DNA of 25,327 nucleotides from a virus (IMGVR_UViG_2671180357_000004:1-25327); one strand, 5' to 3'; positions 7,875 to 25,327 are shown, counted from the stretch's first letter. Translations and numbers: made by a program. Notes: generated by a model not told the origin, from the sequence alone.

Positions 7875-8382
7875 AATATTAAAAATTTTTTAGAAAAGAA
7901 AAATTACTTCCCAGAACAGGTTTTAATAAAACCTGAACTGAACGAACGAAGTGAGTGAAGTTCACCTCGAACGAAGTGAGAGGTTGTCTTTTCAGGTAAT
8001 ACTCTCCCAGGGAGGTGAGTACAAAATTTCCTCACCAACCTGGTCGTTTCATAACCTGAAAAGTTATGACCTAAGTCTACTGCCAGCTTAGGCTTGGGAA
8101 GTTATGGATGACAGCACCCCAGAACCGAGATCTTCCCACACTTTATGAAGGGGAGTACTGGATTCAACCTCTCGAAACACTCCAGACTCGACAATCATAA
8201 AGTGACCCTTCTCTCTGCCCACTTTGGTTCCCCCTTCCCCAACCCCTAAACGGTGCCGGTTCTACGCTGGTAGTGAGCTTTTTTAAACCTGACGCCAGTG
8301 ACGCTATCCCCCACCCATCAGGTCGAGCTGCCGAAAGTATCCGGAAGCGGATAGATTGTATCACTGGTTAGTGGCGTTTTGA
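7875..8382. other. Roughly 510-bp non-coding region dense in short hairpins and direct repeats (candidate structured RNA, origin or packaging-related site)
   Basis: No convincing ORF. Inverted repeats CAGGTTTTA-ATA-AAACCTG, GTGAA-G-TTCAC, CTCCC-A-GGGAG, GGTGAG..CTCACC, CATAAC..GTTATG; direct repeat CGAACGAAGTGAG x2. Confidence 0.4.
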
Positions 8383-8401
8383 ATGGTAAGTACTTACCTA
8401 T
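8383..8401. repeat. AT-rich dyad motif, copy B (ATGGTAAGTACTTACCTAT; 14-bp perfect palindrome GGTAAGTACTTACC)
   Basis: Immediately 3' of the stop of the 8401..8631 gene. Confidence 0.55.
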
Positions 8402-8833: not shown

Positions 8834-9427
8834 TTACGCTGCCTTTTTACGTGGTCTCTTCTTCCTGACAACATTGGCAGGGTCATAACCACCCAGCTTT
8901 TTCATCACCGCCAGCGGTATCTTGCTGATGGTGTGCCCAGCTTCCTGACAGTAGCCACGGAAGATAAGCAACATGCTGCCACCAGGGTTGATGTTCACCT
9001 CCACCAGCCCAAGTTCAACATCCGGCTCAACGAACGCCACGCGGCCGCCAGACAAGATGACGGTTTCGTTGGCGCATTCAGCCGCACGCTCGTACCACTG
9101 CGTATCGAGGGATTGTGGTATCAGCATGACCGTCGTCACTCCACGCGCCTGCTCGCGAATGGCTGCGTCTATCCAGGGGGTGATTTTGGAGTAGGGCGGG
9201 TTAAGGAACGCCACAGTGCCAGGTTCTCCCCAACTGCACTTGAGCGCATCACGCTCAACACCGATAAAGTTCGGCAGGAGAGCATTATCTTTGTTGCAGG
9301 CGACGTCCACATCGAACTTTACGCCTATGTAACGTTGGATGGCGACAAACAACCACTGCGGTGTGCGCCAAAGGTCGCGAAGAGAGGCATCACGCTCTCG
9401 CTTTTTGATTTTTTCGGCTGCGATCAT
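8834..9427 (-). CDS. DNA N6-adenine methyltransferase, small phage Dam-like family
   Basis: 197 aa; RTPQWLF...FLNPPYS (NPPY catalytic motif); ATG at 9425-9427. Confidence 0.8.
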   Translation of the reverse strand: MIAAEKIKKRERDASLRDLWRTPQWLFVAIQRYIGVKFDVDVACNKDNALLPNFIGVERDALKCSWGEPGTVAFLNPPYSKITPWIDAAIREQARGVTTVMLIPQSLDTQWYERAAECANETVILSGGRVAFVEPDVELGLVEVNINPGGSMLLIFRGYCQEAGHTISKIPLAVMKKLGGYDPANVVRKKRPRKKAA

Positions 9428-9439
9428 TACTTTACTCTG

Positions 9440-9459
9440 ATAGGTAAATACTTACCTAT
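9440..9459. repeat. AT-rich dyad motif, copy D (ATAGGTAAATACTTACCTAT; 20-bp palindrome with 1 mismatch)
   Basis: 12 nt upstream of the Dam-like start codon, downstream of a terminator-like hairpin. Confidence 0.55.
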
Positions 9460-9495
9460 TTTTTCATTTAATCCAACGAATAGCAAACAAAGAAG

Positions 9496-9535
9496 AACGC
9501 GCCAGATTCGCAAACGGGAAGCTCTCTGGCGCGTT
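9496..9535 (-). terminator. Putative terminator-like hairpin (- strand)
   Basis: AACGCGCCAGA ... TCTGGCGCGTT 11-bp stem (long 18-nt loop) followed on the - strand by U-rich CTTCTTTGTTTG; a second hairpin CTGGGTA..TACCCAG lies at 9545-9569. Confidence 0.35.
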
Positions 9536-10790: not shown

Positions 10791-11813
10791 GTGAACAGTG
10801 ATAAGCGGAAACTTTATGTAAATACTCTAGCATTAGATTTGAATATCAAGCCATCCAGACCCTATTACCAAATATTATTAAAAACGATAAAAAAGAAAGT
10901 AGCCGATGGGCAGTCAAAGGCTGAAATCGTCGCTTCTATAAAGAACTCGAAAGAGCACCTTGCCAACATCACACCAACCGGTATTATCAACCATCAGAAA
11001 CAAAATATTAGCTTCAAAAAGACGATGCGCAGTTCTTCCGTTCGGGATGACCTACGTAAGCGAAGAATTGAGTACGTTTTAGAAAAGCGGGAGCTGGAAG
11101 CAAAGGATCGCGCAGCGCGAAAAGAACAAGATGAGAAACGTAAAGCTCTTGAAAAAATCAGGATGGAAAACTTACCTGAAATAGTAGAGAACTGCATCGA
11201 CTTTTCTAAACGTCGTGATTTCCAATTATGGTTTCACCGCACTGGTCAGTATCTGAACACCAGTGCTCAAGGCATTGTTAATGAATTCCTAGCTGAATTC
11301 AAAATTGAAAACCCCATAGTAAAAGCAGAGATTAAATTAATTGGGTCTCCTGAAACTCCTCTTATTGTTACCCAACTACCAATAGAGACTAAGAAAGTTG
11401 AATTTATACCCCAACCACTTCCGTCGAAAAGAGTAGGTGAAAAAGTAACGATTACCAGTCGCCCAGATCAGGCTAAATTCGCAGACTCCGTGGGGGTAAA
11501 CTGCCGCTATACCTGCGTTGTTACTGGTGTCAAAACCAGAGTGCGCTGTGAGGCTGCCCATATCGTTGAGCACAAAGCAGGAGGCGTAGACCATTATACA
11601 AATGGGCTATGGTTGCGAGTGGACATTCACCGTTTATTTGATGCCGGTTTATGCGCAATAGAGCCGTCGACAATGATGATCTACTTTAACCCGATGGTGT
11701 TGATCGACGACCCTGATTTGGAAAAATACCACGCTATCCCCATCTCTCAACCGGTTCGCCCGATAAATCCTGACTACCTTATGGCACGCTGGACGATCTT
11801 CAACATCCGATAG
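10791..11813 (+). CDS. HNH nuclease-domain protein (340 aa; uncharacterised N-terminal region plus C-terminal HNH core)
   Basis: C-terminus CVVTGVKTRVRCEAAHIVEHKAGGVDHYTNGLWLRVDIHRLFDAG matches the Cys...His...N...H...D HNH pattern. Only + strand gene in the phage-like block; visibly AT-rich; GTG start. Confidence 0.7.
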   Translation: MNSDKRKLYVNTLALDLNIKPSRPYYQILLKTIKKKVADGQSKAEIVASIKNSKEHLANITPTGIINHQKQNISFKKTMRSSSVRDDLRKRRIEYVLEKRELEAKDRAARKEQDEKRKALEKIRMENLPEIVENCIDFSKRRDFQLWFHRTGQYLNTSAQGIVNEFLAEFKIENPIVKAEIKLIGSPETPLIVTQLPIETKKVEFIPQPLPSKRVGEKVTITSRPDQAKFADSVGVNCRYTCVVTGVKTRVRCEAAHIVEHKAGGVDHYTNGLWLRVDIHRLFDAGLCAIEPSTMMIYFNPMVLIDDPDLEKYHAIPISQPVRPINPDYLMARWTIFNIR

Positions 11814-15521: not shown

Positions 15522-15540
15522 ATAAGTAAGTACATACATA
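15522..15540. repeat. AT-rich dyad motif, copy E (ATAAGTAAGTACATACATA; degenerate)
   Basis: Between the terminator at 15591-15621 and the thyA start. Confidence 0.4.
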
Positions 15541-15590
15541 TTATTTTATGCAAGTTTATCTGTCAGAAGTGTGTAAGGCTAGGAGGGGAG

Positions 15591-16562: not shown

Positions 16563-16763
16563 GTTTTCTTTCCTTTAGACTTCTTTTGATACGCCAATTT
16601 TGACCCAGCAGCGCCAGGCCACAAAGTGGTTAAACTCGGCTTAGAGGTATTCGAACTGGCTCGGGCCAGTGCAATCGACAGCGAACTTTGTCAGCGCTTC
16701 ATGCAGCTGGCAGCGGCTCGGTGGGCGTTACGTTTTACGATGCTTATTATGTGTAGCCCAATT

Positions 16764-16789
16764 AAAAAGACCACTATATATAGTGGTCT
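16764..16789 (-). terminator. Rho-independent terminator (- strand)
   Basis: 20-bp perfect palindrome GACCACTATATATAGTGGTC followed on the - strand by TTTTT. Confidence 0.5.
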
Positions 16790-16796
16790 CATGGTA

Positions 16797-16816
16797 ATAG
16801 ATAAGCACTTACCTAT
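16797..16816. repeat. AT-rich dyad motif, copy G (ATAGATAAGCACTTACCTAT)
   Basis: Between the RuvC-like gene stop and the terminator. Confidence 0.5.
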
Positions 16817-16827
16817 CAATTATCAAC

Positions 16828-21695: not shown

Positions 21696-21810
21696 GTGTC
21701 TTTTCCTTTGTGGTTATTTTGATACAAATTCTAAGCGTGCATAAGAGGCGTACAACTCATACAACACGGCACACAAAAGAATATAAAGGCACATGATAAT
21801 GATAAAAAAA

Positions 21811-21830
21811 TAAGTAAGTAAATACCTATC
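21811..21830. repeat. AT-rich dyad motif, copy H (TAAGTAAGTAAATACCTATC)
   Basis: In the 396-bp spacer upstream of the sbcD-like start. Confidence 0.4.
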
Positions 21831-22091: not shown

Positions 22092-22736
22092 TTAAAACGT
22101 CTCTGAAGGCTTCTGACGCGCTCTGCTGATGTCTATTACCCCAGCTTTTGGACGAGGGTCTACAAGATTCAACTCTTCAGCACTGTGATACTCCGTGTCG
22201 AACTCCCGATCGACATGGCGAATGTAGATGGCTGTCAGAAGGCTGTTATCATTCAGAAAGTGTCCGTAAGATTTGTGAATTACTTCGCTAACCTTCTCAA
22301 TCTTCTCTCCGCCCATGCAGAGATGGTTAAATCGGCTGTGTTTCCGCAGCATTTCATCCACCGGGCCTGAGTAGACCTTATCAACTCTCCCGAACCGGAT
22401 GATATTTCCGGTATCAGCTTCAACCAGACAAACGAGTTTGCCAGGTTCGACACGATCTCGCCAAGTGACACCAGAGCGCAGTGTGTTGAAGTAGGGAGCA
22501 TCCAATCCGATGATCGGTTTACGAAATGCTAGTAGTGGCACGTAACGTATGCAGCTGTTTAGGTGGAAATGCGCACCGGCGTCGTGGAGTTTAAGCCGGG
22601 TTTCGTTAATCGGGCATTTCGAAGCAATGCCGCAAAGGTCGCAGAGCAACTTCTGTTTGTTCAGACTAGTGTTTGATTCAATGGTGTAGGAGCCATCTTC
22701 AAGACGGCGAACCCAGCGCGTGCGTTTAAGATCCAT
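22092..22736 (-). CDS. Hypothetical protein (214 aa)
   Basis: ORF in track; ATG at 22734-22736; contains CDLCGIASKCP; no confident domain call. Confidence 0.5.
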   Translation of the reverse strand: MDLKRTRWVRRLEDGSYTIESNTSLNKQKLLCDLCGIASKCPINETRLKLHDAGAHFHLNSCIRYVPLLAFRKPIIGLDAPYFNTLRSGVTWRDRVEPGKLVCLVEADTGNIIRFGRVDKVYSGPVDEMLRKHSRFNHLCMGGEKIEKVSEVIHKSYGHFLNDNSLLTAIYIRHVDREFDTEYHSAEELNLVDPRPKAGVIDISRARQKPSETF

Positions 22737-22813
22737 AATTCTTGTTCAAATAATTTTGTCCGGGGCAACGATAACGGATAAGGCGCACCGGAGTTTGCAA
22801 ATGCCTGTTTACT

Positions 22814-22830
22814 TATTCACTTTATTCACA
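22814..22830 (+). promoter_or_regulatory. Two tandem DnaA-box-like 9-mers (TTATTCACT, TTATTCACA)
   Basis: Fit the relaxed TTWTNCACA consensus; immediately upstream of the GATC cluster and iteron array. Confidence 0.4.
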
Positions 22831-22835
22831 GGCCC

Positions 22836-22893
22836 GATCCAATATTTAGATCCCCAGAGAGATCCTACAGAAGATCAAAAGAGATCCCCGATC
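22836..22893. promoter_or_regulatory. GATC cluster (6 Dam sites in 58 bp) of origin module 1
   Basis: GATC at 22836, 22849, 22861, 22873, 22883, 22890, mostly within AGAGATCC-type 10-12 bp repeats. Confidence 0.6.
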
Positions 22894-22934
22894 GTCTCCA
22901 GCGCTTGCGGTTACTGGCTTGAGAAGGGGTTACT

Positions 22935-23036
22935 ATCCACTATAGGGAGCAAAATAACCACTGTAGAGAGCATAATAACCGCTATGAAGAGCAAAACAAC
23001 CTCTCTGGAGAGTAGTCGGTATCCACTGTAGTGAGT
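22935..23036 (+). repeat. Iteron array 1: five direct repeats at 21-bp spacing
   Basis: ATCCACTATAGGGAGC, AACCACTGTAGAGAGC, AACCGCTATGAAGAGC, AACCTCTCTGGAGAGT, ATCCACTGTAGTGAGT at 22935, 22956, 22977, 22998, 23021. Confidence 0.85.
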
Positions 23037-23196: not shown

Positions 23197-23269
23197 TTAT
23201 ACACAGGCCCGATCCAGTAATTCAGATCCCTGTTAGAACCAAAGAGAACCACAAAGACCCAAAGAGATC
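23197..23269. promoter_or_regulatory. Origin module 2: DnaA-box-like TTATACACA plus 3 GATC sites and AAAGAGAnCC repeats
   Basis: CACAGGCCCGATCCA... segment is a near-duplicate of 22828-22893; GATC at 23211, 23225, 23266. Confidence 0.45.
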
Positions 23270-23317
23270 CCCGGCCCCTGCAAACCGTTGTGCCACATGG
23301 CTTTAGAGGTTATCGAT

Positions 23318-23439
23318 ATCCACTATAGTGAGAAGAACAACCACTATGGAGAGTAAATCAACCACTATGGAGAGTAGAAAAACCGCTGTAGGCGGTAGGA
23401 TAACCACTGTGATGGGTGCTACTATCCACTGTAATCAGT
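23318..23439 (+). repeat. Iteron array 2: six direct repeats at 21-bp spacing, ending 40 bp upstream of repA
   Basis: Starts at 23318, 23339, 23360, 23381, 23402, 23424; consensus A(A/T)CCACT(A/G)T(A/G)G(A/T)GAG(T/C). Confidence 0.85.
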
Positions 23440-23478: not shown

Positions 23479-24534
23479 ATGAGCGTAAACGACAATAAAA
23501 ACATTGCGATAAGCGAAGCATTTTCCGAAACAGACAAAAAGACCGGCGAAGTTGTTACGTTAGTTCCTAACACCAACAACACAGTTCAGCCTGTTGCTCT
23601 GATGCGTCTTGGTCTCTTCGTTCCGACGCTGAAATCGACATCCAGGGGTAGAAAGGGGCAAATGGTCTCTATGGACGCCTCCGCTGAACTCAAACAGCTG
23701 TCTCTGGCCAAAGCCGAAGGGTACGAGGATATAAGGATTGCTGGTCTTCGTCTTGATATGGATAACGATTTCAAAACATGGGTGGGCATCATCCACGCGT
23801 TCGCCAAGCACAAGGTTGTTGGTGACACCGTCACGTTGCCGTTCGTCGAGTTCGTCAGACTTTGTGGCATTCCAACAGCCAGATCGTCCGCGAAGTTACG
23901 TAAGCGCCTGGACAGCTCTCTAAGTCGTATCGCCACAAACACCATCTCATTCCGCAGCAAAGGCTCTGAAGAGTATTACGTTACGCACCTTGTGCAGACG
24001 GCAAAGTACAGTACCAAGAATGACACGGTCGAACTGAAGGCCGATCCTAAGATTTTCGAACTTTACCAGTTCGACAAAAAGGTGCTTTTGCAACTTCGGG
24101 CCATCAACGAACTCTCCAGAAAGGAATCCGCGCAGGCGCTCTACACCTTCATTGAAAGTTTGCCACCAGACCCGGCGCCAATCTCATTGGCTCGCTTACG
24201 CGCCAGACTTAACTTAACCAGCCGCACCATTACCCAGAATGCGACAGTCAGGAAGGCGATGGAGCAGCTGCGAGAGATCGGCTATCTCGATTACACTGAA
24301 GTGAAACGCGGCAGCTCGGTCTACTTCGTCATCCACTATAGACGGCCGAAGTTACGTTCGGCACTGCCGCCATCTATGGCCACGCCTGAAGATCCAGAAG
24401 ATATCTTGCCAGGTGATGATCCGGAGGACATTATCGATGTTGCTCCTGAAGAAAAAGACGGGGAAATGGTCATGTTGAGCAAGGAAGAACTGGCGATTCT
24501 CGAAGAGCTGCGCAAGGCAAAGGCTCGCAAATAG
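23479..24534 (+). CDS. repA: Iteron-binding replication initiator RepA (RepFIB / P1 RepA-like)
   Basis: 351 aa; [72 protein letters not shown] recalled as hallmarks of RepFIB/P1-type initiators; flanked on both sides by iterons. Confidence 0.9.
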
Positions 24535-24537
24535 CCC

Positions 24538-25136
24538 AACCACTGTAGAGAGTAAAAAGGCTCACTATCCACTGTAGTGAGCCTTTTTGTTTATCGGAAA
24601 TGCAATATCCACTGTAGTGAGTAAAAGAAACCGAAGAATAACCACTGTAGGCAGTGCGCACAAATCGCGAAGTAAATGTTAGTGGTTGCAAACATAGATA
24701 AAACAAGGGCTGAGAGGTTAGCGGTCACTGGGTATCTCTGTTAAGTCTACTCTCTACAGCGGTTATCGTCGCTCTCCTCATTGTTGACTATCCACTGTGA
24801 AGAGCAGAATTGGCTGACTTGACCTCTATCCACTGTAGTGAGTGGATATCCGTTTAAAACAGCGAAGATTTACTCTCCATAGTGGATATCCGCTGGAGGG
24901 GGCATTCCATCACTCTCTATAGTGGTTGTTTGTAGTCAGTGAACGCCTGTTTACTCACTACAGTGTATAGCGACCCCGATAATCACCAATTTACTCACTA
25001 CAGTGGATAGTTGATATCGTGGCAGAGGGTTTGCTCACTACAGTGGTTGGGGTGCATACCTGAAGGGTGTTCTACTCGCTACAGTGGTTATGAGCCGGAT
25101 TCACACGCGGTGAGCTGGCTACTCACCGCAGTGGAT
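24538..25136. repeat. Downstream iteron field: 14 copies (6 direct, 8 inverted relative to the upstream arrays)
   Basis: Direct at 24538, 24567, 24607, 24640, 24790, 24828; inverted at 24749, 24872, 24912, 24953, 24993, 25033, 25074, 25121; the inverted run 24872-25121 has 40-41 bp spacing. Confidence 0.85.
24559..24591 (+). terminator. Rho-independent terminator of repA with an iteron embedded in the stem-loop
   Basis: GGCTCACTA-tccactg-TAGTGAGCC followed by TTTTTGTTT; stem/loop contains iteron ATCCACTGTAGTGAGC. Confidence 0.6.
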
Positions 25137-25327
25137 AGTGTTATCAGTGGATTTTCTTCAGCAGACCCCAGAGTGTCCCGGCCTTCGTTGCGAGCTTACC
25201 TGTTTCCGGATCGTACATGTGCCATTCACGTCGCTGGTGGACAATATACCCATCTTCACGTTCCAGTCGTTCCAGTACGCCGGACTGCTTGAACCCTTTG
25301 GCACGCCAGGTGATGCTGCCAACTTAC

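Follow-up and report, generated by a model that had tools for sequence, protein, structure and literature searches.

The window, as we call the whole stretch of 25,327 nucleotides of viral DNA analysed here (IMGVR_UViG_2671180357_000004:1-25327), carries on its minus strand, at 8834..9427, an ORF with an ATG start that encodes a 197-amino-acid protein with the sequence FLNPPYS at residues 74-80 (NPPY at 76-79), referred to below as the methylase. The gene lies inside a phage DNA-metabolism module, 14 kb from a plasmid replication origin in which GATC sites are tightly clustered. Non-mobilizable IncFIB plasmids of E. coli, of ~106-113 kb, are the best matches to the window in a megablast search (top match NZ_CP122497, 98.9% identical across 93% of the query), and positions 4133-25000 show 93% nucleotide identity to Salmonella phage SSU5; we therefore assign the window, by homology, to a phage-plasmid of E. 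coli of the SSU5/pHCM2 type.

In an annotated neighbour plasmid a long series of phage genes for DNA metabolism runs along the minus strand—Rha regulator, RNase H, methyltransferase, 3'-5' exonuclease, AAA ATPase, DHFR, thymidylate synthase, a pyrophosphohydrolase of the MazG-like kind, and SbcC/SbcD-like proteins—and its end adjoins the divergently transcribed repA. The order repA ... sbcCD-like ... thyX-DHFR-exonuclease-methylase-RNase H is kept from E. coli to Moellerella. The phage-plasmids SSU5, pHCM2 and Cyrano (pLF82) belong to the same group as the window element, their methylases being 86-100% identical to that of the window; the window element differs from them in carrying a type I hsdR/hsdS block as well as an HNH endonuclease ORF, and in being without nrdAB.

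These local differences can be placed as follows. The type I restriction-modification block occupies 1-4078 (the end of hsdS, then hsdR at 842-4078), the site at which Cyrano and pJN2-26 have a DUF4942 'putative DNA modification methylase'; given this block, the element has at least one further methylation system, unrelated to the methylase at 8834..9427, which belongs to Pfam family PF05869. The HNH_2 endonuclease domain is encoded in a 340-amino-acid ORF at 10791-11813 on the plus strand, opposite to its neighbours, which are the gene for a 323-amino-acid acidic protein on one flank and the 3'-5' exonuclease gene on the other. NZ_CP122497 has no annotated gene at this position, and the stretch of it that matches is, taken overall, ~0.8 kb shorter than the window; the ORF looks like a mobile insertion of the homing type. 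The nrdA-nrdB pair, which in Cyrano, pMT1 and Moellerella pW1-b lies between the MazG-like gene and upstream hypothetical genes, and which is also listed for SSU5, is absent from the window at 16563-16827.

The methylase and its likely specificity

The methylase matches the Pfam model PF05869 ('Dam') with E=4.4e-37 and 127.8 bits against a cut-off of 28.1, its sole Pfam match, and the NCBIfam equivalog model TIGR01712 (phage_N6A_met) with 111.8 bits against a curated cut-off of 97.05. The first-pass annotation of this DNA had described a small NPPY-motif N6-adenine methyltransferase of the phage Dam-like family, and the ORF, the motif and the two model scores bear this description out: the protein is, judged by its sequence, an orphan N6-adenine DNA methyltransferase of the 'phage Dam' family typified by the HP1, T1 and VT2 enzymes.

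Distant relatives include orf13 of Haemophilus phage HP1, gp20 of coliphage T1, Tls Dam and the nin-region methylase of Stx phages (VT2-Sakai orf32). With the HP1, T1, Tls and Stx-phage enzymes the methylase has in common residues D18, W20, T22, P23, D41, N48, W66, W111, E121, R129, F132 and N147, and it keeps all 19 residues that are invariant in an eight-sequence alignment of the family. Its likeness to HP1 orf13, T1 gp20 and M.EcoVT2Dam, the enzyme of the VT2-Sakai/933W nin region, takes in membership of PF05869 and TIGR01712, the NPPY motif, a size of ~170-240 amino acids and a single domain; their genes, like that of the window methylase, lie in a phage replication or early region, and in HP1 a MazG-like gene is adjacent. 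There are differences as well. The HP1, T1, Tls and Stx-phage relatives score 210-250 bits against PF05869 while the window methylase scores only 128; it is 28-34% identical to the HP1, T1 and VT2 enzymes, those three being 32-37% identical to one another; the clade to which it belongs is without the N-terminal K-S/G-N-T-P motif of the characterised enzymes (KSNTP), and differs from them in its N-terminal segment and in a 'NINPGGS' loop; and it ends in a basic C-terminal tail, KKRPRKKAA.

Methylases 60-100% identical to that of the window are found on contigs of ~100-113 kb from Escherichia, Salmonella, Klebsiella, Enterobacter, Cronobacter, Xenorhabdus, Providencia and Moellerella, and this conservation makes the gene part of the SSU5-type backbone; the gene order around it is conserved as far as Moellerella. 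The clade is, on the same comparisons, a divergent deep branch of a known phage family, already annotated as such in RefSeq and structure-less in our PDB search, in which the methylase sequence found no relative. The literature found on PF05869 and TIGR01712 consists of mentions in annotation pipelines only.

The AF2 model of the methylase (pLDDT 85, pTM 0.81) is a single Rossmann alpha/beta domain, and the protein is accordingly modelled as one domain with no separate target-recognition domain. Foldseek searches with this model returned only the catalytic domains of M.TaqI, CamA, M.BseCI and KsgA, at TM values of 0.4-0.55; as these are generic amino-methyltransferase catalytic domains, we rejected the fold matches as a guide to specificity. 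Other affiliations were considered and rejected. The class of E. coli Dam, T4 Dam and P1 Dmt (D12, PF02086) does not fit a protein that matches PF05869 only and carries NPPY, not DPPY. Nor are the non-specific adenine methyltransferases Hia5, Hin1523 and Nma1821 of the same family: Hia5 has been grouped with Dam/DpnM/T4Dam homologs that carry DPPY (PMC3299994), whereas the window protein is an NPPY enzyme of PF05869 whose gene is not accompanied by one resembling com.

As to the sequence modified, our best guess from these family relationships is that the methylase is specific for GATC, and we consider this fairly probable. T1 Dam is reportedly GATC-specific. M.EcoVT2Dam is 'known to target GATC' (PMC6602927), and we take VT2-Sakai orf32 to be this enzyme because it is the sole annotated methyltransferase in the stretch examined. 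The alternative, that the window methylase recognizes a relaxed motif, or one other than GATC, and acts solely in broad anti-restriction with no tie to GATC sites, is in our estimation unlikely. It would draw on the position of the methylase in a divergent sub-clade, with its low identity to the characterised members, its lower HMM score and its altered N-terminal segment and 'NINPGGS' loop, as well as on the finding that methyltransferase specificity can shift at far higher identity, as it does in Type IIG enzymes (PMC6602927). Against it, the three characterised branches of the PF05869 family (HP1, T1, VT2), which are as distant from each other as from the window protein, are all reported to be GATC-specific; the window methylase, as modelled, has no variable target-recognition domain to swap; and all hosts of its clade are Dam+ Enterobacterales, in which phage mimicry of the host Dam is the usual pattern (PMC7556043). 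The alphaproteobacterial phage methylase phiLM21_p027, which modifies GANTC, was considered as a sign that specificity drifts within PF05869, and was rejected since it has no Pfam match and no BLASTP similarity to the window protein. That the methylase shields the element's DNA against restriction is plausible.

A P1/RepFIB-type origin

The origin core is duplicated in tandem, at 22813-23035 and 23197-23438, with a period of 375-383 bp. The first module begins with two DnaA-box-like 9-mers in tandem, TTATTCACT and TTATTCACA (22813..22830, plus strand), at the same position as the annotated DnaA site in P1 oriR. Next comes the array of GATC sites (22836..22893), with sites at 22836, 22849, 22861, 22873, 22883 and 22890, spaced by 13, 12, 12, 10 and 7 bp; it is equivalent to the array of Dam-site heptamers of P1 oriR. 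Iterons of the A/T-ATCCACTGTAGNGAG type follow at 22933..23035 (plus strand; repeat families D1, D3 and D6). The second module (23197..23269) has one DnaA box, TTATACACA, and a decayed GATC array in which three sites are kept, at 23211, 23225 and 23266; its iterons (23316..23438, plus strand) lie directly upstream of repA in an incC-like position. The repA gene itself (23479..24534, plus strand) encodes an iteron-binding initiator with Rep3_N/Rep3_C (WH1/WH2) domains, and is followed at 24536..25138 by a further field of iterons, direct and then inverted (D1, D2, inverted pairs I1-I25), which forms an incA-like copy-control region. A 17-nt iteron family is present in 11 copies on both sides of repA, with more inverted copies at 24746-25138.

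The count of six GATC sites in 58 bp given by the first-pass annotation for 22836-22893 is exact, and such clustering is far beyond chance: it was reached in none of 300 first-order Markov simulations (maximum 4) and in 0.065% of uniform placements, and none of the other 4-bp palindromes exceeds five in 58 bp within the window. Across the window as a whole GATC is neither enriched nor avoided (117 sites against a shuffle expectation of 104 +/- 9). The three additional sites that the same annotation had noted in module 2 are indeed present, though not significant taken alone, three GATC in 58 bp being the commonest maximum in random placements; what gives the trio its interest is that module 2 repeats module 1 directly, in diverged form. 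From this copy of the core, the one proximal to repA, a DnaA box and three of the GATC sites have been lost, the central heptamers having changed from GATCC to GAACC or GACCC. The decayed copy is common to SSU5, pMT1 and Cyrano; pJN2-26, PhiR41_1, P1 and F have a single GATC cluster near repA, 178-354 bp upstream of it.

RepA of the window is 47.5% identical to P1 RepA (over 72% of the protein), 63% to that of F RepFIB and 93% to that of pMT1 and SSU5. In all ten relatives whose repA-upstream region was inspected, 5-6 GATC sites fall within 60 bp: five in P1, F RepFIB, a Cronobacter plasmid and Moellerella pW1-b; six in IncFIB(K), pMT1, SSU5, Cyrano and the Klebsiella phages pJN2-26 and PhiR41_1. 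Side-by-side alignment brings out a common layout of two DnaA boxes, TTATCCAC-N-TTATCCACAGG, then GATC every 10-13 bp, then the end AGATCCC(C/T)GATCG, while the bases between the GATC sites vary freely among the aligned origins. At the equivalent positions the P1 record is annotated with a DnaA site and with 'Dam site; methylation site', after which come the incC iterons, then repA and incA.

P1 oriR is thus like the origin of the window in its homologous RepA, in its tandem DnaA boxes and 5-6 GATC sites ~11 bp apart ending in GATCCC-N-GATCG, and in its order of iterons after the GATC array, then repA, then a second iteron field; it is unlike it in that the window core is tandemly duplicated, with a repA-proximal copy that has lost half its GATC sites. 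The RepFIB replicons (F, P307, pColV-K30 REPI), IncFIB(K) and pMT1 share with the window a RepA 59-93% identical and 5-6 GATC sites upstream of repA, but are without a PF05869 methylase, and most of them are conjugative plasmids rather than phage-plasmids. Since this layout is shared with P1, F and their relatives, the GATC array is the canonical origin core of the P1-oriR/RepFIB type and not peculiar to the window element. The origin core of the SSU5/pHCM2/pMT1 replicon is now precisely assigned; the kind of origin was already known. That SeqA binds the hemimethylated P1 core is established. In E. coli, plasmids P1 and ColV-K30 are stated to need a methylated origin in order to replicate (PMC2865523).

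Directly adjoining the origin is a gene for a 214-amino-acid protein (22092-22736, minus strand), transcribed away from it. In Cyrano the orthologous product carries the annotation ASCH-domain protein, while a Pfam search with the window protein gave no match; expression of the ortholog in Cyrano lysogens is ~3-fold above the prophage background, as implied by Table 1 of PMC9928086.

Methylase and origin on one replicon

The first-pass annotation had regarded the methylase as paired with a GATC cluster at its own origin, and this is where it and our results part. By tblastn the methylase is found in 774 plasmid records, 758 of them non-mobilizable, of ~100-120 kb, and RepA homologs in no fewer than 5000 plasmids, with 2653 conjugative ones among the matches listed. 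PF05869 methylases are themselves common in phages that have no plasmid origin, such as T1, HP1, Stx phages and Sf6 (1973 phage records). The methylase and the GATC-rich origin are not co-inherited. The array is present in F, IncFIB(K), the Cronobacter plasmid and pMT1, and is ancestral to all P1/RepFIB origins, with or without this methylase.

pMT1 of Y. pestis Pestoides B (NZ_CP010021, the whole 107 kb) amounts to a natural knockout. Its RepA is the 93% identical protein mentioned above and it has the same six-GATC module, yet the complete plasmid contains no PF05869 homolog (best tblastn E=0.89), its thyX-to-RNase H segment having been replaced by IS elements. pMT1 is a decayed, non-inducible relative, and all that can be concluded from its loss of the methylase is that plasmid replication does without the enzyme. 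The sole methylase of pMT1 is a 225-amino-acid PF01555 (N6_N4_Mtase) protein, encoded at 78048-78725 of NZ_CP010021 and unrelated to PF05869; its gene lies in a block resembling the leading region of a conjugative plasmid, with ArdA, an ssb fragment, DUF1380 and a ParB-like gene.

Expression could be judged from the phage-plasmid Cyrano, whose CYRAN_79 is the ortholog of the methylase (86% identical). In RNA-seq of E. coli LF82, the strain that carries Cyrano, CYRAN_79 stands at 7.06/4.99 on a scale with a floor of 5, and its log2(FPKM+5) values are 2.3-4.1 in all ten samples; on the same scale Cyrano RepA stands at 168/99 and a putative repressor at 96 (PMC9928086 S1 Table). In this relative of the window element the methylase gene is silent in the plasmid state: CYRAN_79 is at the floor in 10 of 10 samples, with RepA 20-100 times above it across the lysogen RNA-seq. 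Cyrano is induced 39-fold by ciprofloxacin (PMC9928086).

P1 offers a precedent for such regulation. Its dmt gene, whose product is annotated as specific for GATC, shares an operon with a MazG-like gene, and this operon lies behind Odmt, an operator controlled by C1. P1 Dmt resembles the window methylase in being phage-plasmid-borne, in its association with a MazG-like gene and in being off in lysogeny (through Odmt in P1; from the silent ortholog in Cyrano), but the protein families are different: Dmt combines PF00145 and PF02086, as a bifunctional C5-cytosine and D12-class N6-adenine methyltransferase unrelated to PF05869, and is analogous, not homologous.

Distribution, the pMT1 natural knockout, regulation and expression are four independent lines of evidence against pairing, at least for plasmid maintenance. 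The GATC array and the methylase being both ordinary and separately inherited, their presence on one replicon is probably a coincidence. The reading we prefer, with a probability of about 0.6, is that the element carries two independent ordinary modules, a P1/RepFIB-type origin served by the host Dam and a lytic-cycle orphan methylase, probably specific for GATC. In the prophage-plasmid state, by analogy with the known replicons, the host Dam would methylate the GATC array of oriR; this methylation would be needed for oriR function, as it is in P1 and ColV-K30, with RepA and DnaA firing the origin, and the array in its hemimethylated form would be a target of SeqA and transiently sequestered, as homology with P1 suggests. 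The methylase would be off during plasmid maintenance, as is seen for the 86%-identical ortholog, and would most likely be made only after induction or infection. In a lytic phase it would then modify fast-replicating phage DNA, probably at GATC, where the host Dam is outpaced, and progeny DNA would thereby appear 'self-like' toward restriction, toward MutH and mismatch repair, and possibly in packaging.

A coupling of methylase and origin confined to the lytic or establishment phase strikes us as rather improbable. The induced methylase would here saturate the GATC array of oriR, and perhaps the packaging site, with the outcome that oriR escapes SeqA and over-replicates, that packaged genomes reach the next host origin-competent, or both. 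P1-type origins do need methylated DNA (PMC2865523); the methylase lies in a block of replication genes whose transcription diverges from that of the origin region; and GATC-type methylases that are unrelated, of PF02086 in P1 and of PF05869 in SSU5-type elements, have arrived there convergently. That the P1 and SSU5-type lineages each pair an oriR of the Dam-dependent type with a phage methylase could be a hint of such a link, which, if true, would make the two methylase acquisitions a convergent adaptation. Weighing against this, PF05869 is so common in phages without a plasmid origin that the co-occurrence needs no special explanation, the Dam of the recipient host would methylate incoming DNA anyway, and a role of oriR as the driver of lytic replication is unsupported here.

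In the earlier reading the methylase works in the plasmid state and determines how its own origin is methylated, and with it sequestration, independently of the host Dam. If true, this would be an instance, of which few are seen, of a plasmid that frees itself from the cell-cycle control of its host through an origin methylase of its own. A Dam-type origin and a methylase that probably targets GATC do stand on one replicon, as they likewise do in P1, but with the ortholog at the transcription floor in every lysogen sample of Cyrano, and with the same origin replicating without the methylase in pMT1, F and thousands of IncFIB plasmids, we give it very little credence. A constitutive extra Dam would moreover shorten sequestration and loosen copy control, an argument behind which stands established knowledge of Dam overproduction at oriC. 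Control of this kind had been likened to that described for P1-type replicons; the P1 methylase is repressor-controlled, and what has been described for the P1 plasmid is dependence on the host Dam (PMC2865523). The evidence points instead to textbook biology, an origin that borrows the host Dam and a lytic-cycle methylase of a common phage family.

A terminator-like hairpin and a dispersed palindrome upstream of the methylase

The sequence preceding the methylase gene holds two features recognised by comparative alignment; a simple sigma-70 and terminator scan around the gene gave nothing above chance. One is a 20-bp palindrome, ATAGGTAA-N4-TTACCTAT (9440..9459), 12 nt upstream of the methylase ATG. 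The other is a terminator-like hairpin of the Rho-independent kind on the minus strand, CGCGCCAGA...TCTGGCGCG followed by a T-run (9485..9533), between the upstream gene and the methylase. The hairpin is conserved in Cyrano and shows a compensatory G:C to A:T change in pJN2-26, and its position upstream of the methylase marks the gene out as a separate transcription unit.

The palindrome, with the consensus ATAGGTAAGT/ACTTACCTAT, occurs in six copies in the window at three mismatches or fewer, against 0.02 expected. All are intergenic (7186-7205, 8382-8401, 9440-9459, 15522-15541, 16797-16816 and 21810-21829) and all precede minus-strand phage genes, among them those for the methylase, thyX and the sbcD-like protein; none is near repA. 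Syntenic copies of it are kept in Cyrano, pJN2-26 and pMT1, while the flanks diverge in Cyrano and pJN2-26. pMT1 has 11 copies, its structural-gene region included; in T1 the palindrome was looked for and is absent. The palindrome (ATAGGTAAGTACTTACCTAT) could be a dispersed operator (cf. the C1 operators of P1), a phage promoter element or an RNA hairpin. The operator is a guess, albeit one by which the palindrome may prove to be the dispersed operator of a clinically widespread phage-plasmid family. The copy at 16797, which in Cyrano precedes nrdA, remains in the window despite the loss of nrdAB.

Following another palindrome copy is a stretch of ~540 bp, 7864-8400, with no convincing ORF. 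Scans of the window with Rfam, this stretch included, and for tRNAs gave no matches. The matching region of Cyrano contains CYRAN_81 (44 amino acids), expressed in lysogens 12-fold above the prophage background (PMC9928086 Table 1), and 7864-8400 may hold a gene for a small RNA or micro-protein active in lysogeny.
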